From: Mobula hypostoma
Lineage: Eukaryota
Assembly: GCF_963921235.1 (NCBI RefSeq)
Contig: NC_086108.1
Span: 85,810,001 to 85,874,000 of the forward strand
Length of the DNA stretch: 64,000 nt
Direction: 5' to 3'
The notes beneath the pieces were generated by a model. That model ran no database searches, was not told the DNA's origin, and worked only from the letters and a program-made list of their open reading frames with translations. The position numbers and the translations under genes were made by a program. This document shows, piece by piece, positions 5,310 to 45,706 of this stretch (the stretch's first letter is position 1; every line of letters starts with the position of its first letter).

Positions 5310-6875
5310 CACATAAAGTTCTGGAGGAGCTCAGCAGATCAGGCATCTCTGGAGAGGAATAAACAGTTGGTGTTTCAGACCTTCATCAGGACTAGAAAGG
5401 AAGGAGGAAGCCACAATAAAAAAGGTGGAGGAGTGGCAGGAGTACAAGCTGGCAGGTGATAGGTATGAGCAGGTGAGAGAGAAGATGGATAGGTGGGAAG
5501 GGAAGGATGAAGTAAGAAGGTGGGAGGGGATGGGTGGAGAGGTAAAAGGTTGAATAAGGAATTTGATAGGAGAGGATATTTGACCATGAAAGAAAGGGAA
5601 CTACTACTATTACGTTGACTCAGGACTAGGGGGCCGGCATTGGGCACGATGACGGACTCTCCACTTCTCCCTCTCCCTCATCAGTGTGTTCAGTTCATCT
5701 ACATTAGCCGCACCACTGTCTTCTAGGAACGCGTTGACCATAGTCTTGGGAGGGCGCCCAGGGTTCATCCTCCCGTGCTTGGGCTCCCATATGATGACTA
5801 GGCTGGCAGGTAGCTCAGGGTGGTGTAGACAGTGCCCCACAAGTTGCAGTCTTCTCGCCTCGATTTTAGTGGAGAGCATCGGTAAGTTGTTATAGAGCTC
5901 AATGTTCGTCATGTGCTGTTGCCAACTCACGTCAAGAGCCATCCGGAGCATTCATGTATAGCAACCATCTGGAGACTTTTGCATAGTCTTGGTGAGTGTC
6001 CACGTCTCGCATCCACATGTGAGAATGGACTCTATGACTGCTATGAAAATGCTCTTTTGAAGACCTCTGGTCAGGTTCGACTTCCAGATTTCCTTCATGT
6101 CGTTCATAGCCCTCCACGCCAGCGCCTTCCGTATCTTAATGTCCTTCTCTGAACTCATCATTCTTGACCTGAGGTACTTGTAGTCAAAGACTTTCTTAAT
6201 GGTATCATTCTCTACGGTCTTGAGAGTATCTTCATCGCAGCTAAACGCCATGTACTCTGTCTTTTTAGCGTTTAGGTGAAGTCCAACTTTATTGTACTCA
6301 ATTTCCTCCATCTGGTCAGAGAGCAGGACTATGTCAACTGCAAAATCGAGATCTGTCAGCGTAACTGGTCTGACCCTTTTGGTTCACCTTGGTTTTATGG
6401 TAAAACAAAGCTTGTCATGATCTTTGGTAGCTTGAAAGGGAAGGTTGAGGGGAACCAAAGGGAGGTGATAGCCAGGTGAAAGGAGAAGGGGTGAGAGGGT
6501 AACTAGAATAGGGAATAGAAAAAGATAGAAGGAGGGAGGGAGGAAGGAGAGAGTCCTGGAAGTTGGAGAAATCAATGTTCATACCATCAGATTGGAGGCT
6601 ACTCAGACAAAATATGAGGTGGTGCTCCTCCAACCTTGGTTTGGCCGCATCACCTGTCAGCTTGTCCTGCTTCCTCTCCCATCTTCCCCCCACCCCCAGC
6701 TTCTTATTCTGGCTTCTTCCCCGCCTTCCTTTCCAGTCCTGATGAAGGATCTCGGCTGAAATATCGACTGTTTATTCCCCTCAATAAGTGCTCCTGACTA
6801 GCTGAGTTCCTCCAGCACTCTTGTGTGTGCTGTTCAAGATTTCCAGGATACACCGAATCTTTTGTGTTTCTGCAG
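5310..6875. mobile_element. PLE fragment in fold-back arrangement (minus-strand 3' end, then plus-strand terminal repeat), split by an RTE
   Basis: Minus-strand GIY-YIG C-terminus EEHHLIFCLSSLQSDGMNIDFSNF (6560-6635). 5310-5460 is inverted relative to 6655-6830. Degenerate hammerhead at ~6735-6770. Confidence 0.8.
5601..6433 (-). mobile_element. RTE-clade LINE, 5'-truncated, 9-bp TSD
   Basis: Minus strand encodes LTDLDFAVDIVLLSD (RT YADD-type motif), GLHLNAKKTEYM, DYKYL, ESILTCGCETWTLT, RRLQLVGHC and GRPPKT. Tail (tag)n at 5601-5610. TSD gaaagggaa at 5592-5600 and 6434-6442. Confidence 0.92.
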
Positions 6876-8496: not shown

Positions 8497-11494
8497 AAGG
8501 GTTTAAACTAATTTACAAGGGGGATGGGACCCAGAGCGATAGAGCAATGAAAGAAGTGCATGGAATAAAGCCAGATCTAACATATAGAGAGGAAAGAGAA
8601 GCAGAATAAAGGGTGTAAAGGTAGTAAGGTAGAAGGGCTGAAATGTGTGTACCTCAATGCAAGGAGCATCAGGAACAAAGGTGATGAACTGACAGCTTGG
8701 ATACATGCATGGAATTATGATGTAGTGGCCATTACAGAGACTTGGCTGGAACCAGGGCAGGAATGGATTCTCAATATTCCTGGATTTCAGTGCTTTAAAA
8801 GGGATAGAGAGGGCGGAAAAAGGGGAGGAGGGGTGGCATTACTGGTCAGAGATACTAGTACAGCTACAGAAAGGGTGGGTAATGTAGCAGGATCCTCTTT
8901 TGAGTCAGTATGGGTGGAAGTCAGGAACAGGAAGGGAGCAGTTACTCTATTGGGGGTATTTTATAGGCCCCCTGGTAGCAGTAGAGATACAGAGGAGCAG
9001 ATTGGGAGGCAGATATTGGAAAGGTGCAAAAATAACAGGGTTGTTATCATGGGTGACTTTAACTTCCCTAATATTGATTGGCACCTGATTAGTTCCAAGG
9101 GTTTAGATGGGGCAGAGTTTGTTAAGTGTGTCCAGGACGGATTCCTGTCACAGTATGTGGACAGGCCAACTAGGGGGAATGCCATACTAGATCTAGTACT
9201 AGGTAATGAACCGGGTCAGGTCACAGATCTCTCAGTGGGTGAGCATCTGGGGGACAGTGACTACCGCTCCCTGGCCTTTAGCATTATCATGGAAAAGGAT
9301 AGAATCAGAGAGGACAGGAAAATTTTTAATTGGGGAAGGGCAATTATGAGGCTATAAGGCTAGAACTTGCGGGTGTGAATTGGGATGATGTTTTTGCAGG
9401 GAAATGTACTATGGACATGTGGTCGATGTTTAGAGATCTCTTGCAGGATGTTAGGAATAAATCTGTCCCGGTCAGGAAGATAAAGAATGGTAGGGTGAAG
9501 GAACCATGGGTGACAAGTGAGGTGGAAAATCTAGTCAGGTGGAAGAAGGCAGCATACATGAGGTTTAGGAAGCAAGGATCAGATGGGTCTATTGAGGAAT
9601 ATAGGGAAGCAAGAAAGGAGCCTAAGAAGAGGCTGAGAAGAGCAAGAAGGGGGCATGAGAAGGCCTTGGCGAGTAGGGTAAAGGAAAACCCCAAGGCATT
9701 CTTCAATTATGTGAAGAACAAAAGGATGATAGGAGTGAAGGTAGGACTGATTAGAGATAAAGGTGGGAAGATGTGCCTGGAGGCTGTGGAAGTGAGCGAG
9801 GTCCTCAATGAATACTTCTCTTCGGTATTCAACAATGAGAGGGAACTTGATGATGGTGAGGACAATATGAGTGAGATTGATGTTCTGGAGCATGTTGATA
9901 TTAAGGGAGAGGAGGTGTTGGAGTTGTTAAAATACATTTGGACGGATAAGTCCCCGGGACCTGATGGAATATTCCCCAGGCTGCTCCACAAGGCGAGGGA
10001 AGAGATTGCTGAGCCTCTGGCTAGGATCTTTATGTCCTCGTTGTCCACGGGAATGGTACCAGAGGACTGGAGGGAGGCAAATGTTGTCCCCTTGTTCAAA
10101 AAAGGTAGTAGGGATAGTCCGGGTAATTATAGACTAGTGAGCCTTACGTCTGTGGTGGGAAAGCTGTTGGAAAAGATTCTTAGAGATAGGATCTATGGGC
10201 ATTTAGAGAATCATGGTCTGATCAGGGACAGTCAGCATGGCTTTGTGAAGGACAGATCGTGTCTAACAAGCCTAATAGAGTTCTTTGAGGAGGTGACCAG
10301 GCATATAGATGAGGGTAGTGCAGTGGATGTGATCTATATGGATTTTAGTAAGGCATTTGACAAGGTTCCACACAGTAGGCTTATTCAGAAAGTCAGAAGG
10401 CATGGGATCCAGGGAAGTTTGGCCAAGTGGATTCAGAATTGGCTTGCCTGCAGAAGGCAGAGGGTGGTGGTGGAGGGAGTACATTCAGATTGGAGGATTG
10501 TGACTAGTGGTGTCCCACAAGGATCTGTTCTGGGACCTCTACTTTTTGTGACTTTTATTAACGACCTGGATGTGGGGGTAGGAGGGAGGGTTGGCAAGTT
10601 TGCAGATGACACAAAGGTTGGTGGTGTAGATAGTGTAGAGGATTGTCGAAGATTGCAGAGAGACATTGATAGGATGCAGAAGTGGGCTGAGAAGTGGCAG
10701 ATGGAGTTCAACCGGGAGAAGTGTGAGGTGGTACACTTTGGAAGGACAAACTCCAAGGCAGAATACAAAGTAAATGGCAGGATACTTGGTAGTGTGGAGG
10801 AGCAGAGGGATCTGGGGGTACATGTCCACAGATCCCTGAGAGTTGCCTCACAGGTGGATAGGGTAGTTAAGAAAGCTTATGGGGTGTTAGCTTTCATAAA
10901 TCGAGGGATAGAGTTTAAGAGTCGCAATGTAATGATGCAGCTCTATAAAACTCTGGTTAGGCCACACTTGGAGTACTGTGTCCAGTTCTGGTCGCCTCAC
11001 GACAGGAAGGATATGGAGGCATTGGAAAGGGTACAGAGGAGATTTACCAGGATGCTGCCTGGTTTAGAGAGTATCATTATGATGAGAGATTAAGGGAGCT
11101 AGGGCTTTACTCTTTGGAGAGACGGAGGATGAGAGGAGACATGATAGAGGTGTACAAGATAATAAGAGGAATAGATAGAGTGGATAGCCAGCGCCTCTTC
11201 CCCAGGGCACCACTGCTCAGTACAAGAGGACATGGCTTTAAGGTAAGGAGTGGGAAGTTCAAGGGGGATATTAGAGGAAGGTTTTTTACTCAGAGAGTGG
11301 TTGGTGCATGGAATGCACTGCCTGAGTTAGTGGCGGAGGCAGATACACTAGTGAAGTTTAAGAGACTACTAGACAGGTATATGGAGGAATTTAATGTGGG
11401 GGCTTGTATGGGAGGCCGGGTTTGAGGGTCTGCACAACATTGTGGGCTGAAGGGCCTGTACTGTGCTGTACTATTCTATGTTCTATGTTCTATG
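8497..11494 (+). mobile_element. Young CR1 (HER1-like) LINE, ~3 kb, truncated at the ORF1/ORF2 junction
   Basis: Starts at the ORF1-terminal 'ggtttaaactaa' (GLN*). Complete APE and RT ORF2. 3' tail attctatgttctatgttctatg. Confidence 0.97.
8641..11425 (+). pseudogene. CR1 ORF2 (APE endonuclease + reverse transcriptase) with two 1-nt frameshifts
   Basis: [68 protein letters not shown]. The frame changes at ~9343 and ~11076; otherwise open (ORFs 8647-9357, 9330-11093, 11114-11425). Confidence 0.95.
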
Positions 11495-14437: not shown

Positions 14438-15000
14438 AACTCAGTAGCCACTTTATTATGTATACCTGCTCGTTAATGTAAGTATTTAATCAGCCAATCA
14501 CATGGCAGCAACTCAATGCATAAAAGCATGAAGCCATGGTGAAGAGGTTTGGTTGTTGTTTAGATCTAACATCAGAATGGGAAAGAAATGTGATCTAAGT
14601 GAGTTTGATCGTGGATTGACTGTTGGTGCCAGATGGGTGGTTTGAAGATCTCAGAAAGTGCTGCTCTCCTGGGATTCTCATGCACAACAGTCTCAAGGGT
14701 TTACAGAAAATGGTGCAGAAAACAGAAAATGATCCAGTGAGTGGCCTTTCTGTGAGTAAAAATACCTTGTTAATGGAAGAGTTCAGAGAAGAATGGCTAT
14801 GCTGATTTAAGATTACAGGAAGGTAACAGTAACTTGAATAATCACGTGTTACAACAGTGGTGGGCGAAAGAGCATTTCAGAACACAAAACACATCGAACT
14901 TTGAAATGGATGGGCTGCAGAGGATCACGGACATACAGAAATCTACTCAGTAGCCTGTTTTTTAGATTGCTCCTGTACCTAAAAAAGTGGCCACTAAGTG
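14438..15000 (+). mobile_element. Internally deleted Tc1-like DNA transposon
   Basis: TIRs actcagtagccactttattatgta / tacctaaaaaagtggccactaagtg, followed by TA. Transposase N-terminus MGKKCDLSEFDRGLTVGAR at 14577 through SISEHKTHRTLKWMG. Confidence 0.88.
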
Positions 15001-15277
15001 TATATATTCTTGGAAATAAAGAGGCAAAACAGTTCACAATCATCTAGATACAGCCTATCTTATTTTTATACTCAAATGCTCCTGAAATAAAAGCCATCAT
15101 TCTATTAATTTTCATAATTACCTGCTACATATTTATCATATGCCAGCTTTCAGTGTTTCATGTGAGAACCTCCAAATCCCTTTGTTCTGCTGCTTTCTGT
15201 AATCTTTGTCTATTTAAATAATAGTCTGTTTTATTGCTTTTAAAAGTGAACAGTTTCATATCTTACTACAGCCACAA

Positions 15278-15629: not shown

Positions 15630-15952
15630 AACATACAAAAAAAAGTGCTGGAGGATCTCAGCAGGACAGGCAGCATCTATAGAGGAGAATAAACCGTGGA
15701 CATTTAGGGCTGAGACCCTTCATTATTACTAGAGAGGGAGGGGGAAGAAGCCAGAATCTGAAGGTGGCGGGAGGGGAAGGATTACAAGCTGGCAGGTGAC
15801 AGGTGAAACGAGGTGGGGGGGGGGAATGTGGGGAGGTCGGGGAAGGGAGATGAAGCTGGGATGTAAGAAGAAGTGAGTTGTTGCATGATCTGAGTTCTTC
15901 CAGCATTTTGTGTGTGTTGCTCTGGATTTCCAGCATCTCTAGAATCCCCTGT
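15630..15952. mobile_element. PLE terminal-repeat fold-back fragment
   Basis: 'gtgctggaggatctcagcagg...' is inverted against 'ctgagttcttccagcattttgtgtgtgttgct'. Confidence 0.7.
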
Positions 15953-16842: not shown

Positions 16843-18184
16843 TAGAACATAGAATAGTACAGTACATTACAGGCTCTTCGGCCCACAATGTTGTGCCGAC
16901 CCTCAAACCCGGCCTCCCATATAACCCACCCACCTTATATTCCTCCATATACCTGTCTAGTAGTCTCTTAAACTTCACTAGTATATCTGCCTCTACCACT
17001 GACTCAGGCAGTGCATTCCACGCACCAACCACTCTCTGAGTAAAAAAACCTTCCTCTGATATCCCCCTTGAACTTCCCACCCCTTACCTTAAAGCCATGT
17101 CCTCTTGTACTGAGCAGTGGTGCCCTGGGGAAGAGGCGTTGGCTATCCACTATATCTATTCCCCTTAATATCTTGTACACCTCCGTCATGTCTCCCCTCA
17201 TCCTCCGTCTCTCCAGAGAGTAAAGCCCTAGCTCCCTTAATCTCTGATCATAATCCATACTCTCTAAACTAGGCAGCATCCTGGTAGATCTCCTCTGTAC
17301 CCTTTCCAATGCTTCCACATCCTTCCTATAGTGAGGTGACCAGAACTGGACATAGCACTCCAAGCGTGGCCTAACCGGAGTTTTATAGAGCTTCATCATT
17401 ACATTGCTACTCTTAAACTCTATCGCTCGATTTATGAAAACTAACACCCCATAATTTTTCTTAACTACCCTATCTATCTGTGAGGCAACTTTCAGGGATC
17501 TGTGGACATGTACCCCTAGATCCCTCTGCTTCTCCACACTACCAAGTATCCTGCCATTTACTTTGTACTCTGCCTTGGAGTTTGTCCTTCCAAAGTGTAC
17601 CACCTCACACTTCTCCAGGTTGAACTCCATCTACCACTTCTCAGCCCACTTCTGCATCCTATCAATGTCTCTCTGCAATCTTCGACAATCCTCTACACTA
17701 TCTAAAACACCACCAACCTTTGTGTCGTCTGCAAACTTGCCAACCCACCCTTCTATCCCCACATCCAGGTCGTTAATAAAAATCATGAAGAATAGAGGTC
17801 CCAGAACAGATCCTTGTGGGACACCACTAGTCACAACCCTCCAATCTGAATGTACTCCCTCCACCACGGCCCTCTACCTTCTGCAGGTAAGTCAATTTTG
17901 AATCCACCTGGCCATACGTCCCTGGATCCCATGCCTTCTGACTTTCTGAATAAGCCTACCGTGTGGAACCTTGTCAAATACCTTACTAAAATCCATGTAG
18001 ATCACATCCACTGCACTACCCTCATCTATATACCTGGTCACCTCCTCGAAGAACTCTATCAGGCTTGTTAGACACGATCTGCCCTTCGCAAAGCCATGCT
18101 GACTCTCCCTGATCAGACCATGATTCTCTAAATACCCACAGATCCCATCTCTAAGAATCTTTTCCAACAGCTTTCCCACCACAG
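16843..18184 (-). mobile_element. Young CR1 LINE, 5'-truncated (1.34 kb), same family as 8497-11494
   Basis: Near-identical translation ([35 protein letters not shown]); tail 'atagaacatagaat'. Confidence 0.97.
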
Positions 18185-19204: not shown

Positions 19205-19302
19205 AATGCACGCAAAATGCTGGAGGAACTCAGTAGGCCATGCAGCATCTATGGAAAAGAGAGAACAGTCAATGTTTTGGGCCAAGACCCTTCATCAGGA
19301 CT
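19205..19302 (-). mobile_element. PLE terminal-repeat fragment with CpG-decayed hammerhead
   Basis: Minus strand agtc-CTGATGA-agggtcttggccc-AAAA-cattgact. Confidence 0.75.
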
Positions 19303-20421: not shown

Positions 20422-20643
20422 ACCCCTTTTGCCAATCACCTGTCCAGCTCTTGGCTCCATCCCTCCCCCTCCTGTCTTCTCCTATCATTTTGGATCTCCC
20501 CCTCCCCCTCCCACTTTCAAATCTCTTACTAGCTCTTCCTTCAGTTAGTCCTGACGAAGGGTCTCAGCCTGAAACGTCGACTGTACCTCTTCTTAGAGAT
20601 ACTGCCTGACCTCCTGCGTTCGCCAGCAACTTTGATGTGTGTT
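20422..20643 (+). mobile_element. Young PLE (Neptune-type) 3' terminal repeat
   Basis: Highly similar to 44950-45168. Confidence 0.88.
20547..20582 (+). ncRNA. Minimal type-I hammerhead ribozyme motif
   Basis: agtc-CTGACGA-a-gggt(ctca)gcct-GAAAC-GTC-gact; stem I is agtc/gact. Confidence 0.7.
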
Positions 20644-20677
20644 ACTCCCACGAGACTATCAGTCCTAGTCCTCCATG

Positions 20678-24559: not shown

Positions 24560-25378
24560 TAACGCAAACACGAGGAAATCTGCAGATGCTGGAATTTCAA
24601 GCAACACACATAAAAGTTGCTGGTGAACGCAGCAGGCCAGGCAGCATCTCTAGGAAGAGGTACACTCGACGTTTCGGGCCGAGACCCTTCGTCAGGACTA
24701 ACAGAAGGAAGAGCTACTAAGAGATTTGAAAGTGGGAGAGGGAGGGGGAGATCCAAAATGATAGGAGAAGACAGGAGGGGGAGGGATGGAGCCAAGAGCT
24801 GGACAGATGATTGGCAAAAGGGATATGAGAGGATCATGGGACAGGAGGCCTGGGGAGAAAGAAAAGGGGGGGGGAACCAGAGGATGGGCAAGGGTATAGT
24901 GAGGGGGACAGAGGGAGAAAAAGGAGAGAGAGAAAAAGAATGTGTATATAAATAAATAACGGATGGGGTACGAGGGGGAGGTGGGGCATTAGCGGAAGTT
25001 TGAGAAGTCAATGTTCATGCCATCAGGTTGGAGGCTACCCAGATGGAATATAAGGTGTTGTTCCTCCAACCTGAATGTGGCTTCATCTTTACAGTAGAGG
25101 TGGCCGTGGATAGACATATCAGAATGGGAATGTGATGTGGAATTAAAATGTGTGAATGGGAATGGGACGTGGAATTAAAATGTGTCCCTTGTCCATTCGT
25201 GGACAATAAGCGGAACAGGGGCTACACATGCCCTTACATTTCCTCTCTCATTACCAATCAGGGCCCCAGACAGTCCTTCCAGGTGAGGCGACACTTCACC
25301 TGTGAGTCGGCTGGTGTGATATACTGCGTCCGGTGCTCCCGATGTGGCCTTCTATATATTGGTGAGACCCGACGCAAA
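24560..25378 (-). mobile_element. Neptune-type PLE 3' end (minus strand, 24560-~25182) joined to an inverted upstream piece (plus strand, ~25185-25378)
   Basis: Minus strand HFNSTSHSH...DEATFRLEEQHLIFHLGSLQPDGMNIDFSNFR; plus strand FTCESAGVIYCVRCSRCGLLYIGETRR. Confidence 0.92.
24664..24699 (-). ncRNA. Minimal type-I hammerhead ribozyme motif (one stem I mismatch)
   Basis: Minus strand agtc-CTGACGA-a-gggt(ctcg)gccc-GAAAC-GTC-gagt. Confidence 0.65.
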
Positions 25379-27509: not shown

Positions 27510-28475
27510 GTCTGATGAAGGGTCTTAGCTCGAGACATTGGCTGTTTCCTCTTTTCCATAGGTGCTGCCTGGCCTGCTGAGCTCCTCCAGCATTTTGTGT
27601 TTGTTTCTCTGATGAGATATTAATCTGAGGCTTGGCTCAGGTGGATATGAAGGATCATGAGGCAGTTTTGAATAAAGGCCAATGCCACAGGCCAATTATG
27701 GATTTGCACTTATCATGCACTGACCAGGTGAAAAGTTCAAAAAGGCCCCAAAAAAAATCAAACACAAGAGATTCTGCAGCTGTTGGAAATCTTGAGAAAC
27801 AGACACCAAATGCTGGAGGAACTCAGCATGTCTTTTAACATCTACAGACAGAAATAAACAGTTGATGTTTTGGGTCTTCATTGTAAGGTCTCGGCCCAAA
27901 GTGTCGACTGTTTATCCCCCTCCATAGATTGTGACCGACTTGCTCAGTTTCTCCAGCATTGTGTGTGTGTGTGTGTGTCTGTGTGTGTGTGTGTCTATGT
28001 GTGTGTGTGTCTGTGTGTGTGTGTCTGTGTGTGTGTCTGTGTGTGTGTGTGTCTATGTGTGTGTGTGTCTGTGTGTTAACCAAGCCCATTTTATTGTAAC
28101 CCTACCTCCTTATTCTGCCTCCGGCCCGCTTCCCTTTCAGTCTTGATAAGGGGCCTCGGCCGAAAACGTCGATTCTTTATTCCTCTCCATAGGTGCTGCC
28201 TCACCTGCTGAGTTCTTCCAGCATTTTGTGTTCTTGCTCAAGACTTCCAGCATCTACAGAAACTCTTTCACAAAAAATGCTGGAGGAACTCAACAGGCCA
28301 GGCAGTGTCTATGGAAAAGAGTAAAGGGTCAACGTTTCATCAGTCCTGAAGAAGGGTCGCGACCTGAAATATCGACCCTTTACTCTTTTCCATAGGTGCT
28401 CACTGGCTTGCTGAGCTCCTCCAGCATTTTGCGTGTGTTGCTTTGGATTTTCATCTGCAGATTTCCTCGGGTTTG
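27510..28475. mobile_element. Cluster of PLE terminal-repeat fragments, including two fold-back pairs (27760-27960 and 28270-28475)
   Basis: Repeated 'aaatgctggaggaactcagc' / 'gctgagctcctccagcattttg' in opposite orientations; decayed hammerhead cores at ~27512, ~28140 and ~28342. Confidence 0.75.
27960..28076. repeat. Imperfect (TG)n microsatellite
   Basis: About 117 bp of tg repeats with tc/ta interruptions, apparently expanded from the 'gtgtgtgt' of the PLE repeat. Confidence 0.97.
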
Positions 28476-28830: not shown

Positions 28831-29714
28831 AAATTATGGATTGCAAATATTAATTAAAAAGAGAACCAGTCTTCAGAAAATAACAATGTAACTTCAACTG
28901 ATAATTAAAAGCAATTAAAACCAATCATTGAGTATTGATTATTCTCATTCTGTATCATTGAAACTACTCAGAAGACAGTAGATGAACATTCATTGAAACC
29001 CTCAGGATGAGATCAAGATAGGTGTTAAGTGGCTGACCCTTGTATTACCATACTGTTAGAGGCATATCCACCTACTTCATAAACAGCTTAGGATAGTTTT
29101 GTCACTTAATTGACTGGCTACTTGTATAGTGAGGGAATCATCCCATAACTCTGTCACTAAAGATGTATATTTTAGATATCTGAAGTTTGTGTCCAGAGGC
29201 TCTTGAATTGCCACAGTATTTGAACACGCAAAGAGATTCTGTGAATTGGTATGTGCTATGCTTATAAAAATTACCTGTCAACCTACATTCAAAATGTTTA
29301 AGTAGGGAAAAAACAGTCATTGAAACTGAAGTTCATTCCTTATTGTTGCCTCTGCATTTGAAAAGTGTAAAATATTGTGTACAGAGAGGATAGATTCTCT
29401 CCCAGTGATCTACCATGTTTTTTTAATTGCCCAGCAGCAGCCTCCACGTGGCTCAGCAATACTTAATACCCAAACAAGTGATTCTGCAGGTGCCAAAACT
29501 CCAGGGTAACGCGTAGAAAATGCTGGAGGAAATCAACAGGTCAGGCAGCATCTATGGAGGGTGGAGGGAAATAAACAGTCAACATCTTGGGCTGAAACCC
29601 ATCACCGTGACTGGAAAGGAAGGAGGAAGAAGCCAGAATATCAATACTTATCCCTCCATCATCATCATCCCAAGAAAATGATTATCTGGTCCCTACTATG
29701 ATAAAGTTGATTAT

Positions 29715-31308: not shown

Positions 31309-32670
31309 ATGAATAAACTCTTCTTGGACTTTTAACTGGGTACTGGTAAAAAATTTTAACCAGTTTCAATGATAAACTCTGCCATCTTCATCAGGAGTAA
31401 TGCTTGGGCATGTTTAGTCTGGTGGTATTTATATCCCCGTCATCCATCCCTCCTGATTAGTTAGTCCTCATCCAATCAGATTTTCAGTGTCCCACCTTGT
31501 TTACAATCGAATTCCAGTTCTTACTTAGAGTGAGTTCTTCGTCTTTATTAAAACACTTTTTCTCTAGTTTTATTTAAATGGATTCCTTCACCAGGCAATC
31601 CCAAAAACCATTGGTGTAGCCCAGTAGTTTTGTGCCATTGAGGTCAATCCTATGGCCATTGCAGACACAATATTCTGCTACTGCTGATTTCTCCGGGCAT
31701 CCCAAACAGATACACCTCCAGTGCTCTTCGATACGGACTTCCTCCGTGTGTCCTGTCTGACCAATAAACATTGGTGTGCAGTCACAGGGAATCCTGTAAA
31801 TGCTAGCCGCCATCCTGAGTCTCAGGTTGTCTTTGACCCACATAAGCTGTGACTTGAACTTCGTTACAGGTCTGTGGATCGTATTAATCTGGTATTTTTT
31901 TTAAGGATCCTGGCAATCCTTCCAAAAACCACGGAAATATAGAGGAGACAGGTGGTAGCGACGGGTTCCTCCTCATTGCTAGGTTTCCTGGTTTTTCTGT
32001 CAGCCCTTTTAAGGGCCTAATTGATTATAATTATCTTGACGCCATTCTGTAGGAACATTGTGCTTAATTGCCTTATTTCTTCGTGGAGACTGTCTGGGTC
32101 TGAAATAGCTTTCGCACAGTTAATCAAAGTAGAAAGAACTGCTCTAAGTTGGGAAGCGTGATGGTAGCTGTTATTGTTGAGCTACAGTCTGTGTGAGTGG
32201 GTCTCCAAAAGATGCCATGTCTGAGGCTACCATAGAGTTTCTGCTGTATTAAAATGTTCGGCAATGGAAAGCAACCAATGATCTCCGTCTCCATCGTAAA
32301 TTGAACGTTTAAGTGTATGCTGTTCTGGTTGTCGTGGAATTGTTGGAATGCCTGGAGTCCATGAAGTCACACTATGGAGGTGTCATTGACATATTTGAAG
32401 AGACAATTGGGGTGCGAGGGGGATGAACTCAGAGCCCTCTCATCAAAGCCCTCCACGTAGAAGTTAGCAATCGCCGATGGCAAGGACGAACCCGTGGCCA
32501 TCCCGTCCGTTTGTTCATAGTAGCTCCCCTTTTAGAGGAAGTACGTTGACGGAAAGGTATATTCAAAAAGATCACTGGTAACCTTATCAAACATTAACCG
32601 CAGGAGGACCGAGTCGTCCGTAATGGAAACCTTTGTTGAAACTGACCATTATGTCCTCCTTGGGTAACCA
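31309..32670 (-). mobile_element. Penelope/Poseidon-type PLE (RT C-half + GIY-YIG + terminal repeat), decayed
   Basis: Minus strand YYEQTDGMATGSSLPSAIANFYVE, FKYVNDT (cf. RYVDD), IYRIPCDCTPMFIGQTG...EEHWRC...KSAVAE...FWDCLVKESI. Confidence 0.92.
31357..31398 (-). ncRNA. Degenerate hammerhead motif in the Poseidon-type terminal repeat
   Basis: Minus strand CTGATGA-a-gatggca(gagtt)tatcatt-GAAAC-tggtta; cleavage triplet and stem I are unclear. Confidence 0.5.
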
Positions 32671-37444: not shown

Positions 37445-38090
37445 TCAAAGTTCAAAGTAAAGTTATTATCAAAGTACAGATACAACCCTGAGATTCATTT
37501 TCTTATAGGTGGTGTCAGTAAATACAAAAAAAATCTACTATAAAATTAATTAAAAACCACACACAACAAAGACAGACAGACAACCAATGTGCAAAAGATG
37601 ACAAACAGTGCAAATACAAAAACAAGATAAAATAACATAATGACAGTAAATAAGTAAGCAATAAATACTGAGAAGACGATGAATTCTGCAGATGCTGGAA
37701 ATTCAAGCAACACACATCAAAGTTGCTGGTGAACGCAGCAGGCCAGGCAGCATCTCTAGGAAGGGGTATGGTCGACATTCCAGGCCGAGACCCTTCGTCA
37801 GGACGTACGAAGGGTCTCGGCCCGAAACATCGACTGCACCTCTTCCTAGAGATGCTGCCTGGCCTGCTGCGTTTACCAGCAACTTTGATGTGTGTTGCTT
37901 CAATAAATACTGAGAACAAGATTTGAAGAGTCTTTGAAAGTGGGTGCATAGGTTATGATTTCTGTACTGGGGTGAATGAAGTTGAGTGAAGTTATCTCTT
38001 CTGATTCAAGAGCCTGATGCTTGAGGGGAGCCTGGTGGTGTGGTGTACCAGCTTCCTGATGGCAGCAGTGAGAATTGAGCATGGCCTGGA
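37445..38090 (-). mobile_element. Rex1 3' end carrying a PLE palindrome
   Basis: 'ttcaaagttcaaagtaaagttattatcaaagtac' tail; 'ttcctgatggcagcagtgagaa..gcatggcctgg'. Confidence 0.8.
37675..37900. mobile_element. 226-bp palindromic PLE terminal-repeat insertion with 16-bp flanking duplication
   Basis: Arms 37705-37798 and 37807-37900 (94 bp, about 85 matches, 8-nt loop). Duplication caataaatactgagaa at 37659-37674 and 37901-37916. Confidence 0.92.
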
Positions 38091-39116: not shown

Positions 39117-41371
39117 AACACCACCATCAAGAATGCCTACTGTGCTATTCCACGCCCTCACTTTGGAAAGTCTGATCACCTGGCTGTACTTCTACTCCCT
39201 GAGTACAGGCAGAGACTGAAGACTGCAGCACCAGCAGTGAGGACCAAGAAGGTTTGGACAAGGGAAGCACAGGAGTGCCTGTAGGACTGCTTTGAATCGG
39301 TGGACTGGACGTATTCAGGGATTCATCTTTGAACTTGGATAAGTACGCTGCAGTTGTTACCGACTTCATTAAAACCTGTGTGGATGAGTGTGTGCCCACA
39401 AAGACTGACTGTACATTCCCAAACCAAAAGCTGTGGATGAACCAGGAGGTACATCGTCTGCTGAAGGCTAGATCTGTGGCAATCAAGTCTGGCAACCCAG
39501 GCCTGTACCAGAAAACCAGGTATGATTTGCGGAGGGCTACTTCAAGGACGAAGTGACAATTTTGAACGAGATTGGAGACAACATTGGATGCATGACAAAT
39601 CTGGCAGGGTTTGCAAGACATTACTTCCTACAAAGCGAAACCCAATAGCATGAACGGCAGCGATACTTCACTACCAGATGAACTCAATGTCTTTTATGCC
39701 CGCTTTGTAAGAGAGAACACAACTACAGTTGTGAAGATCCCTGCTGCACCTGATGACCCTGTGATCTCTGTCTCAGAGGCCGATGTTAGGCTGTTTTTAA
39801 AGACAGTATATCCTCACAAGGCGGAAGGTCCCGATGGAGTACCTGGTAAAGCTCTGAAAACCTATGCCAAGCAACTGCTGGGAGTATTCAAGGACATTTT
39901 CAACCTCTCACTGCTACGGGCAGAAGTTCCCATTTGCTTCAAAAAGGCAACAATTATACCAGTGCCGAAGCAGAATAGTGTGAGCTGCCTTAATGATTAT
40001 TGCCTGGTAGCACTCACATCGACAGTGATGAAATGCTTTGAGAGGTTGGTCATGACTAGACTGAACTCCTGCCTCAGCAAGGACCTGGACTCATTACAAT
40101 TTGCCTGTCGCCACAACAGATCAATCGCAGATGCAATCTCAATGGCTCTTCACACGGCTTTAGACCACCTAGACCACACAAATACCTATGTCAGGATGCT
40201 GTTCATTGACTATAGCTCAGCATTTAATACCATCATTCCCACAATCCTGATTGAGAAGTTGCAGAACCTGGGCCTCTGTACCTCCCCCTGCAATTGGATC
40301 CTCAACTTCCTAACTGGAAGATCACAATCTGTGCGTATTGGTGACAACATCTCCTCCTCACTGATGATCAGCACTGGGGCACCTCAGGGGTCTGTGCTTA
40401 GCCCACTGCTCTACTCTCCATATACCCATGACTGTGTGACTAGGCATAGCTCAAATACCATCTATAAATTTGCTGACGATACAACCATTGTTGGTAGAAT
40501 CCCAGATGGTGACAAGAGGGCATACAGGAGTGAGATATACCAACTAGTGGAATGGTGCTGCAGCAACTACTTGGCACTCAACATCAGTAAGACGAAAGAG
40601 CTGATTGTGGACTTCTGGAAGGGTAAGACAAAGGAACACATACTAATCCTCATAGAGGGATCAGAAGTGGAGAGAGTGAGCAGTTTCAAGTTCCTGGGTG
40701 TCAAGATCTCTGAGGATCTAACCTGGTCCCAACGTATCAACGTAGTCATAAAGAAGGCAAGACAGCCACTATACTTCATTAGGAGTCTGACGAGGTTTGG
40801 AATGTCAACAAGTACACTAAAAAACTTCGATAGATGTAGCGTGGAGAGCATTCCGACAGTCTGCATCACTGCCTGGTGTGGAGGGGCTACTGCACAGGAC
40901 TGAAGGAAACTGCAGAGGATTGTAAATTTAGTTGACTCCACCTTGGGTACTAGCCTATAAAGTACCCAGGGCATCTTCGAGGAGCAGTGTCTGAGAAAGG
41001 CAGCATCCATTATTAAGGACCTCCAGCACCCAGGGCATGCTCTTTTCTCGCTGTTGCCATCGGGTAGGAGGTACAGAAGCCTGAAGACACACACTCAGTG
41101 ATTCAGGAACAGCTTCTTCCCCACTGCCATCTGATTCCTAAATGAACATTGAACCTGTGAACACTACCTCACTTTTTTAATATAGAGTATTTCTGTTTTT
41201 TTGCACAATTTTTAATCTATTCAATATATATACACTGTAATTTATTTAATTAATTTATTATTATTTTATTTTGTGTTTTTTTTCTTCTATATTATGTTTT
41301 GCATTGTACTGCTGTTGCTGTTAACAAATTTCATGTCACATGCCGGTGATAATAAACCTGATTCTGATTCT
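39117..41371 (+). mobile_element. Rex1/Babar LINE, 5'-truncated within the endonuclease
   Basis: PHFGKSDHLAV, NQKLWMN, KAEGPDG, MKCFERLV, FIDYSSAFNTI, GAPQGSVLSPLLYS, KFADDTT, FKFLGV; tail cctgattctgattctg. Confidence 0.97.
39611..40903 (+). pseudogene. Rex1 reverse transcriptase ORF remnant (430 aa)
   Basis: Uninterrupted RT domain, bounded by nonsense codons on both sides. Confidence 0.9.
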
Positions 41372-43915: not shown

Positions 43916-44218
43916 AGTCTTTACATTTAAAAATTTGTGAGGCACAGGACAAAAATACAAAGCACATATCTGCTGAGTAATGGATCTGGTAAATCTCCAT
44001 CTGGGCATTAAGCCTTTCAGATATTGATGCTTCCTTAAATTAGTGTCTAAAGTTTTCTATTACTTGGACATAAGCATGAAGCTACTTTGACTATATTCTT
44101 CATCATGATTAATTGTTGGAAAATGGGAGTGAGCAATATTTTATCAATATAGTGTTCTGTAGCCACAGAAACAGGCCCTTTAGCCCATAAAGTCCATGCT
44201 GACAATCTAGCATTCATT

Positions 44219-45168
44219 TCACTTCCGCCACCTCCAACGGGATCCCACCACTAAGCATATCTTTCCCTCCCCGCCTCTCTCTGCATTCCGCAGGGATCGC
44301 TCCCTACACAACTCCCTTGTCCATTCGTCCCCCCCATCCCTCCCCACTGATCTCCCTGCTGGCACTTATCCGTGTAAGCGGAACAAGTGCTACACATGCC
44401 CTTACACTTCCTCCCTTACTACCATTCAGGGCCCCAAACAGTCCTTCCAGGTGAGGCATCACTTCACCTGTGAGTCGACTGGGGTGATATACTGCGTCCG
44501 GTGCTCCCGATGTGGCCTTTTATATATTGGTGAGACCCGACGCAGACTGGGAGACCGCTTTGCTGAACATCTACGCTTTGTCCGCCAGAGAAAGCAGGAT
44601 CTCCCAGTGGCCACACATTTTAATTCCACATCCCATTCCCATTCTGACATGTCTATCCACGGCCTCCTCTACTGTCAAGATGAAGCCACACTCAGGTTGG
44701 AGGAACAACACCTTATATTCCGTCTGGGTAGCCTCCAACCTGATGGCATGAACATTGACTTCTCTAACTTCCGCTAGGCCCCACCTCCCCCTCGTACCCC
44801 ATCTGTTACTCTTTTTAATGCACACATTCTTTCTCTCACTCTCCTTTTTCTCCCTCTGTCCCTCTGAATATACCTCTTGCCCATCCTCTGGGTCACCCCC
44901 CCCCCGTCTTTCTTCCCGGACCTCCTGTCCCATGATCCTCTCGTATCCCCTTCTGCCTATCACCTGTCCAGCTCTCGGCTCCATCCCTCCCCCTCCTGTC
45001 TTCTCCTATCATTTTGCATCTCCCCCTCCCCCTCCAGCTTTCAAATCCCTTACTCACTCTTCCTTCAGTTAGTCCTGACGAAGGGTCTCGGCCTGAAACG
45101 TCGACTGCGCCTCTTCCTATAGATGCTGCCTGGCCTGCTGCGTTCACCAGCAACTTTGATGTATGTTG
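44219..45168 (+). mobile_element. Young Neptune-type PLE, 5'-truncated, 12-bp flanking duplication
   Basis: Cys-rich linker GTYPCKRNKCYTCPY, then GIY-YIG VIYCVRCSRCGLLYIGETRRRLGDRFAEH...GMN. Duplication ctagcattcatt at 44207-44218 and 45169-45180. Confidence 0.95.
45071..45106 (+). ncRNA. Minimal type-I hammerhead ribozyme motif
   Basis: agtc-CTGACGA-a-gggt(ctcg)gcct-GAAAC-GTC-gact; predicted cleavage after 45102. Confidence 0.72.
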
Positions 45169-45470
45169 CTAGCATTCATTAATGCTAATCCTACACCAAA
45201 ATGATCCTGCTTTCTCCCTTTCCCTTTAACTCCTTCCATATTCTACCGGTTAACTACAAACCTGGAATGATCCCAGACATCTTTGGCATGAGGAGGACAC
45301 TGGAACACTTGGAAATAGCCCACATGATTATCAGCAGAGTATGCAAACTTCACATAGACAGTACTGGAGTACAAGATTGAAACTGGATTGCTGGAGGTGT
45401 GAATCAGCAACTGCAGTAATTTTGCATTTTCTCTCAGGTTCGAACCAAAAATAGACATTACTGTCAGTTA

Positions 45471-45706
45471 ACACACATCAAAGTTGCTGGTGAACACAGT
45501 AGGCCAGGCAGCATCTATAGGAAGAGGCGCAGCCGAGACCCTTCGTCAGGACTAACTGAAGGAAGAGTGAGTAAGGGATTTGAAAGCTGGAGGGGGAGGG
45601 GGAGATGCAAAATGATAGGAGAAGACAAGAGGGGGAGGGATGGAGCCGAGAGCTGGACAGGTGATAGGCAGAAGGGGATATGAGAGGATCATGGGACAGG
45701 AGGTCC
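45471..45706 (-). mobile_element. PLE terminal repeat, inverted relative to 44930-45168, hammerhead 3' half deleted
   Basis: Near-perfect reverse complement of 44925-45165 except for a ~12-nt gap at 'gcgcag^ccgagacc'. Confidence 0.9.

Follow-up and report, generated by a model that had tools for sequence, protein, structure and literature searches.

The window analysed here is a stretch of 64,000 nucleotides from the ray Mobula hypostoma, and the locus of interest lies in its last third. There, the truncated end of a Penelope-like element (PLE) carries a motif with the anatomy of a minimal hammerhead ribozyme (min-HHR). The features of this locus are as follows.

44207..44218 (+), left copy of a 12-bp target-site duplication
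44211..44777 (+), open frame for a C-terminal linker (CX4CxxC) and a GIY-YIG endonuclease domain
44219..45168 (+), 5'-truncated Penelope-like element of the younger subfamily A (N7 = C), without tail, carrying the 45071 motif
44778..45070 (+), pseudo-LTR 3' untranslated sequence, rich in pyrimidines, with AG dinucleotides meeting stem I at its end
45071..45106 (+), minimal type I hammerhead motif with both core boxes, as in the published consensus (PMC4209133)
45169..45180 (+), right copy of the 12-bp target-site duplication

The reverse transcriptase part of the 44219–45168 element has been lost through 5' truncation. The remaining frame stops after the endonuclease, and two relatives of it (P0013 and P0016) have an RVT_1 domain in front, with weak Pfam scores. 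The GIY-YIG match of the frame (E = 2.7e-4, 21.6 bits) falls just under the curated cut-off of 22.6 bits. A linker zinc finger, C51-X4-C56-XX-C59, fits the pattern CX2-5CxxC expected before the endonuclease, in which C94 and C97 are invariant and H116, H132 and H138 are conserved. The closest proteins, among 25 matches from 436 candidates, belong to M. hypostoma itself (92%) and to Hypanus sabinus (84%), followed by sharks. Pieces of the element occur in several ray and shark gene models (P0001–P0009 and P0011), which are either called 'uncharacterized' or joined to the names of host genes, and the peptide at the end of P0008 suggests translation that reads through a similar motif. With respect to the flanking duplication, repeats of at least 11 bp were found in 2 of 400 random pairs, and target duplications of that length were detected for only 3 of the 15 insertions tried.

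The linker zinc finger CX2-5CxxC is described as common to the Neptune, Nematis and Naiad types (PMC8557442). By the definitions of that paper, the sequence of the element places it with Neptune or Nematis and not with Poseidon or Naiad, the latter being excluded because the endonuclease is C-terminal to the reverse transcriptase. As a preprint reports only Neptune and Poseidon among vertebrate PLEs, Neptune is preferred over Nematis, and the element is thus classified as Neptune by its motif and by elimination, not by a reverse transcriptase tree.

The sequence-only reading of this DNA had placed a minimal hammerhead at 45071–45106 (+), and its anatomy was confirmed letter by letter. Stem I is formed by AGUC (45071–74) and GACU (45103–06), with four base pairs and a possible fifth U·G pair. 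The first box, CUGACGA (45075–81), is followed by an extra A (45082), which is present in 14 of 16 window copies. Stem II has four base pairs (GGGU 45083–86 and GCCU 45091–94) closed by a CUCG loop, and it is followed by the second box GAAA (45095–98), C-G (45099–45100) and U-C (45101–02). Helix III has no loop and contains the palindrome ACGU (45098–45101), and the GUC site predicts a cut after C45102. The G-C pair at positions 10.1–11.1 is absent from this copy, which has a wobble G10.1·U11.1 (45083/45094), likely the outcome of CpG decay.

These traits correspond to the min-HHR of metazoan PLE pseudo-LTRs, whose consensus was published in 2014 by Cervera and De la Peña (PMC4209133). Like the ray motif, the published one is of type I, has CUGANGA with one extra nucleotide separating positions 9 and 10.1 and a G at 10.1, passes from GAAA directly to a palindromic C-G-U-C (15.2–16.2), and has a stem I of 3–5 bp and a U-rich 5' flank. 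It also lies in terminal repeats, mostly as solo copies from truncated elements, and it has been reported in Neptune elements of fishes (PMC4209133). The ray motif differs in its stem II, which with 4 bp lies at the lower limit of the published lengths, and in the U at 11.1 of the 45071 copy. Together with the GIY-YIG domain and the linker, this fit upholds the proposal of a minimal type I hammerhead of the dimer-type class that belongs to a Neptune-type PLE's terminal repeat. By contrast, the idea that the loop-less helix III, the palindromic ACGU and the extra A could make a new variant must be dropped, as all three are part of the published consensus (PMC4209133).

A check with the Rfam hammerhead covariance models, suggested in the sequence-only reading, gave no hammerhead match in the window even at E ≤ 1, and only four weak miRNA-type matches were obtained. 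A pattern of the two boxes occurred five times in the window compared to an expectation of 1.27 ± 1.01, and none of 100 shuffles reached five; one of the five matches (31363–31394) lies outside the Penelope-like family. A 47-nt stretch with the motif folded no better than its shuffles (z = 0.10), and for the motif with its tail the values (z from -0.3 to -1.4) were not significant, with no stable downstream structure.

A profile built from nine window copies detected 21 pieces of the family in the 64 kb, about one per 3 kb, and none in the reversed window. The motif copies and composite insertions other than 45071 are listed below.

5365..5393 (-), decayed copy with a 7-nt stem II deletion and U16.1C
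6735..6770 (+), subfamily B copy, core intact, 1-nt stem II deletion, AUAU helix III
15694..15730 (-), decayed copy with C3A, G5A and G12U
19267..19302 (-), decayed copy with G12A, starting at the motif 5' edge
20547..20582 (+), copy in piece 20423–20646, intact core, G10.1·U11.1
24664..24699 (-), core complete and G10.1-C11.1 paired, stem I with a G·G mismatch
27512..27543 (+), decayed copy with A14G that lacks the 5' strand of stem I
27755..27970, subfamily B pair in head-to-head order, each motif broken
28139..28174 (+), decayed copy with C3U, G8A and G12A
28269..28470, head-to-head pair of the older subfamily B
29577..29612 (-), decayed copy with five core changes
37672..37901, two terminal pieces head to head, joined at the motif 5' edge, with one 16-bp duplication
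45470..45706 (-), separate short subfamily A insertion with its own 14-bp duplication

All the decayed copies that had been noticed from the sequence alone (6735+, ~15700-, ~19265–19302-, 27512+, 28139+, 28342+ and ~29580-) were recovered, and the one at 37770–37835 turned out to be two copies head to head. Nine further pieces came in addition to these: 5300–5408-, 15877+, 27781–27876-, 27885+, 28269–28349-, 30257–30321-, 36361–36437-, 45467–45580- and 63045+. Three copies (45071, 20547 and 24664) had been called intact; this holds for their core letters, but not for the stems, given the G·U at 10.1–11.1 in 45071 and 20547 and the G·G in stem I of the 24699 copy. The expectation that this genome holds very many related motifs was borne out by the 21 pieces in 64 kb and by 246,179 contig records matching the element in one DNA run, which may be the source of the window itself.

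In the 37672–37901 pair only one arm has a tail, and both cores are damaged (A13G in one, C3–G5 missing in the other). The + arm of the 28269–28470 pair keeps an intact core at 28342–28377, with an AUAU helix III, a 3-bp stem I and a G·U pair. The AUAU palindromes of 6735 and 28342 were considered as cases of covariation; for 28342 this was ruled out, as the head-to-head partner keeps ACGU, and from this comparison the change most likely came after insertion. The 45470–45706 (-) insertion has lost its GAAA box, helix III and cut site to a deletion of 13 nt. This piece is a near-twin of the 45071 end, 300 bp away and in the opposite direction, and both could form a hairpin of ~250 bp in read-through RNA; its own 14-bp duplication rules it out as an inverted arm of the 45071 element. 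The piece with the 24699 copy (24566–25154) has a tail and an inverted partner at 25207–25376. An optional tail of ~30 nt and inverted partners are ordinary Penelope features (PMC8557442).

Whether the inserted copies are under selection was assessed from their core letters. Thirteen of the 21 pieces span all 11 core positions, and five of these (6735, 20547, 24699, 28342 and 45071) keep the 11 letters, none of them being a perfect copy. The dinucleotide at 11.1–12 was CG in 3, TG in 6, CA in 4 and other in 2 of 15 copies, the pattern expected from CpG decay of an original CG as read from the aligned copies. Because of this pattern, and of the G-C found in most loci of a distant family (see below), a G10.1-C11.1 pair can be inferred at the family level. 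G12 was lost in 6 of 10 older copies. Excluding CpG sites, departures from the subfamily majority amounted to 13 of 145 cells in the core versus 162 of 1244 downstream (p = 0.19), in a test of low power with boundaries set by eye and a mixed older group. Moreover, no two-sided change of a stem pair, and thus no covariation, was seen in 98 cells of 16 window copies. With no significant difference in rate between core and flank and no paired stem changes, the inserted copies therefore appear to decay about like their flanks, with no sign of selection in their sequences.

The picture was different between source elements. Counting only columns with a clear majority, the ray subfamilies A and B differ in 1 of 29 motif columns (N7, a free position) versus 12 of 46 downstream (p = 0.012); without the majority filter the counts were 4 of 36 versus 17 of 63 (p = 0.08), with CpG ties accounting for three of the four motif differences. 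Conservation between subfamilies, one of the checks that had been proposed, was thus seen, with the unfiltered value as its caveat.

The comparison was extended to the best 80 of 546 metagenome loci encoding relatives of the endonuclease, with 38–49% protein identity. A strict descriptor of the motif matched 14 of 62 of these distant loci, downstream of the endonuclease and on the coding strand; it matched nowhere else on the coding strand in 157 kb and gave no match in 20 shuffles. A core pattern blind to the stems was found downstream of the endonuclease in 46 of 65 distant loci; the opposite strand gave it in 1 of 65 and the upstream sequence in 0 of 68. The blastn comparison of the ray 3' region with the distant loci detected no similarity at E < 0.01. 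Core, extra A and CGUC are common to the distant loci and the ray family, and most distant loci have G-C at 10.1–11.1. Stem I is GCU/AGC in the distant family and GUC/GAC in the ray, which makes two compensatory changes. The underlying alignment comprised 5 ray copies and 10 of 15 strict matches, its cells being sequences rather than events, so that the covariation rests on two families and approximately one or two events. The conservation and covariation asked for in the sequence-only reading were thus seen between distant families (46 of 65 loci and two stem I pairs) and not among the window copies (98 cells). As far as these alignments indicate, selection is seen only between source elements and not among inserted copies. 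A search of viral contigs gave one pattern match and no confirmed relative.

On these grounds we consider it highly probable that the motif is a Penelope-like terminal-repeat minimal hammerhead that likely works only in the RNA of active source elements, and that the 45071 copy is truncated, probably inert and decaying. In the RNA of an active source element, the ACGU palindrome would bring two motifs together, each of which, having no loop in helix III, would complete the active site of its partner (as can be deduced from PMC4209133), and the paired motifs would be cut after GUC, likely helped by the element's own protein. Dimer formation and protein assistance are proposed here by analogy with published systems. 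A min-HHR from Schistosoma is reported to be inactive alone and to have low activity as dimer or trimer, and in vitro such motifs generally show little activity, even in dimeric form (PMC4209133). According to a review (PMC6765202), the dimer-cleaving small PLE hammerhead variants of Lünse, Weinberg and Breaker (RNA Biol 14:1499) likewise have a palindromic, very short stem III and cleave as dimers. The hammerhead of the Poseidon element of Anolis carolinensis was cleaved only with the protein of the element present (Frangieh et al. 2024, PMC11167929).

The monomer is predicted to take a rod shape, with GACG of the first box paired to CGUC and the core hidden, and the predicted probability of a hammerhead-like monomer fold is 0.00007. 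A double hammerhead is predicted at -11.1 kcal/mol versus -32.1 kcal/mol for the best inactive dimer, on nearest-neighbour energies that leave out core contacts. The dimer energies by themselves weigh against the reading, and the predictions as a whole are consistent with the need for a helper.

A central role of cleavage, as distinct from its occurrence, has several facts against it. Cleavage mutants of the anole element inserted normally in vitro, and no RNA-seq reads are reported to end at its site (PMC11167929); moreover, Naiad elements proliferate well with no hammerhead (PMC8557442). In the window, at least 17 of 21 pieces cross the cut site and no 5' end lies clearly at 45103, as judged by eye, which suggests that the templates reverse-transcribed into these copies were mostly uncut.

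Some of these facts give weight to a reading in which the motif is kept mainly as a structural module, for RNA dimerisation or protein positioning in the element ribonucleoprotein, with cleavage secondary or late, a reading that we nevertheless regard as unlikely. It would account for templates being copied uncut and for the normal insertion of the anole mutants, whose protein is a predicted dimer (PMC11167929), and the pairing of two RNAs would help to explain the head-to-head insertions joined at the motif, including the 37672–37901 pair with its single 16-bp duplication. Starts within about 12 nt of the motif 5' edge were observed in three head-to-head pairs and two solo pieces (19302 and 27512). 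Eight of 12 short 5' ends fall in 45071–45082 (per insertion 5 of 9, p = 0.03), but this interval was chosen after seeing the data and the ends were set by eye, which weakens the argument. The clustering did not repeat in the distant family, where 0 of 24 inverted pieces start within -4 to +7 of C3, in loci that had been selected for holding the endonuclease. Inverted 5'-truncated partners are in addition known for Penelope in general, hammerhead-less Naiads included (PMC8557442). What is kept between families with unrelated flanks is the full catalytic core and not the palindrome alone. A more specific proposal, to which we also give a low probability, is that the hammerhead would also act as a clasp for two element RNAs within a ribonucleoprotein dimer; reverse transcription could then begin twice, once on each target strand, and end at the motif 5' edge, which would produce head-to-head insertions. 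If true, ray genomes would hold a very large record of this mechanism, given a piece every few kilobases.

Less probable still, and in our opinion very doubtful, is that scattered copies in read-through host transcripts would self- or trans-cleave and affect host RNA, as the sequence-only reading had suggested. The density of the family, the five of 13 core-spanning copies that keep all 11 core letters and the abundance of family sequence in two probable RNA runs (17,217 and 11,167 records) speak for it; these runs, as well as the DNA run mentioned above, consist of contigs, which carry no RNA ends, strand or level, and whose summed depth is not copy number. Against it, no copy in the window is perfect, and 20547 and 45071 form the only same-strand pair whose cores are intact and whose palindromes match; they lie 24.5 kb apart and both have G10.1·U11.1. 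Predicted inactive folds dominate, copies are under no apparent selection, and the unique flanks of the 45071 element (44100–44140 and 45207–45300) had zero depth in both probable RNA runs, where contigs show presence and not absence. Host trans-cleavage consequently finds little support. In a DNA run of raw reads (X21), no reads fell on the element.

The last alternative, an accidental likeness of repeat sequence to a hammerhead, could invoke the silence of Rfam, the unremarkable folding of the 47-nt stretch and the 1.27 expected two-box matches, but it is refuted by the exact fit to the published class (PMC4209133) and by the same core, place and strand with compensatory stem I changes in distant elements, and is almost certainly wrong.

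With the min-HHR reading retained, the motif adds one lineage, the rays, to a class described in 2014. Supplementary file 2 of PMC4209133 gave no matches to cartilaginous fishes under shark, skate, Leucoraja or Callorhinchus, and no description of such a motif in cartilaginous fishes appeared in the titles and abstracts searched, a search that most subscription papers fall outside. Animal non-LTR retrozymes, whose type I hammerheads are akin to those of Penelope terminal repeats, are reported in one chondrichthyan genome (bioRxiv 10.64898/2026.07.22.740005). They differ in forming head-to-tail tandem arrays, whereas none of the nine tandem arrays of the window contains the motif. The anole Poseidon resembles the ray element in having a hammerhead near the 3' boundary followed by two alternative ends, and in its AT-rich target, the 12-bp duplication of the ray containing ATT (PMC11167929). 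It differs in that the linker zinc finger, present in the ray element, is absent from the Poseidon clade, in the start codon inside the anole motif, and in that the anole motif was assayed while the ray motif is known from sequence (PMC11167929). A copy-rich ray genome would offer a cheap test of whether cut RNA ever serves as template.

Some further observations concern the surroundings of the motif. Ray elements end either at +95 from C3 or with a tail ~30 nt longer (window 45170 versus 24566–24599), and the distant family (L001–L080) likewise has two 3' ends, at about +86–93 and +141–149 from C3. The two alternative ends behind the motif in both families resemble the two initiation sites of the anole element. 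On the other side, a pyrimidine tract and AG at 45050–45072 abut the 5' strand of stem I. In the Penelope of Drosophila virilis, an intron reportedly ends at the matching place. No splice joint ending at stem I was present among the 15 joints listed (of 677), and in the distant family stem I is not preceded by an AG.

In one subfamily of the distant loci, grouped by eye on its flanks, core position 4 is occupied by C in 11 of 12 copies (L002, L008, L013, L016, L026, L034, L037, L046, L059, L066 and L073), with the motif about 85–250 nt behind the endonuclease match. The change U4C lowers activity in vitro, yet it suffices for a viroid in vivo (PMC3088659). Another, more canonical type I hammerhead motif was found in L023 (about 1985–2035, -); its stem I has 6 bp, it lacks the extra nucleotide, and its helix III holds a palindrome of 6 nt.

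Elsewhere in the window, a near-perfect 67-nt hairpin at 14939–15005 matched a miRNA-type Rfam family weakly, with a score that falls far short of the cut-off. Other LINE-type retrotransposons are represented by long frames at 8581–11425, 39596–40903, 17004–17630 and others, two of which have strong reverse transcriptase matches. Finally, the 45071 motif itself lies 298 nt behind the stop of the endonuclease frame and about 65 nt before the end of its element.
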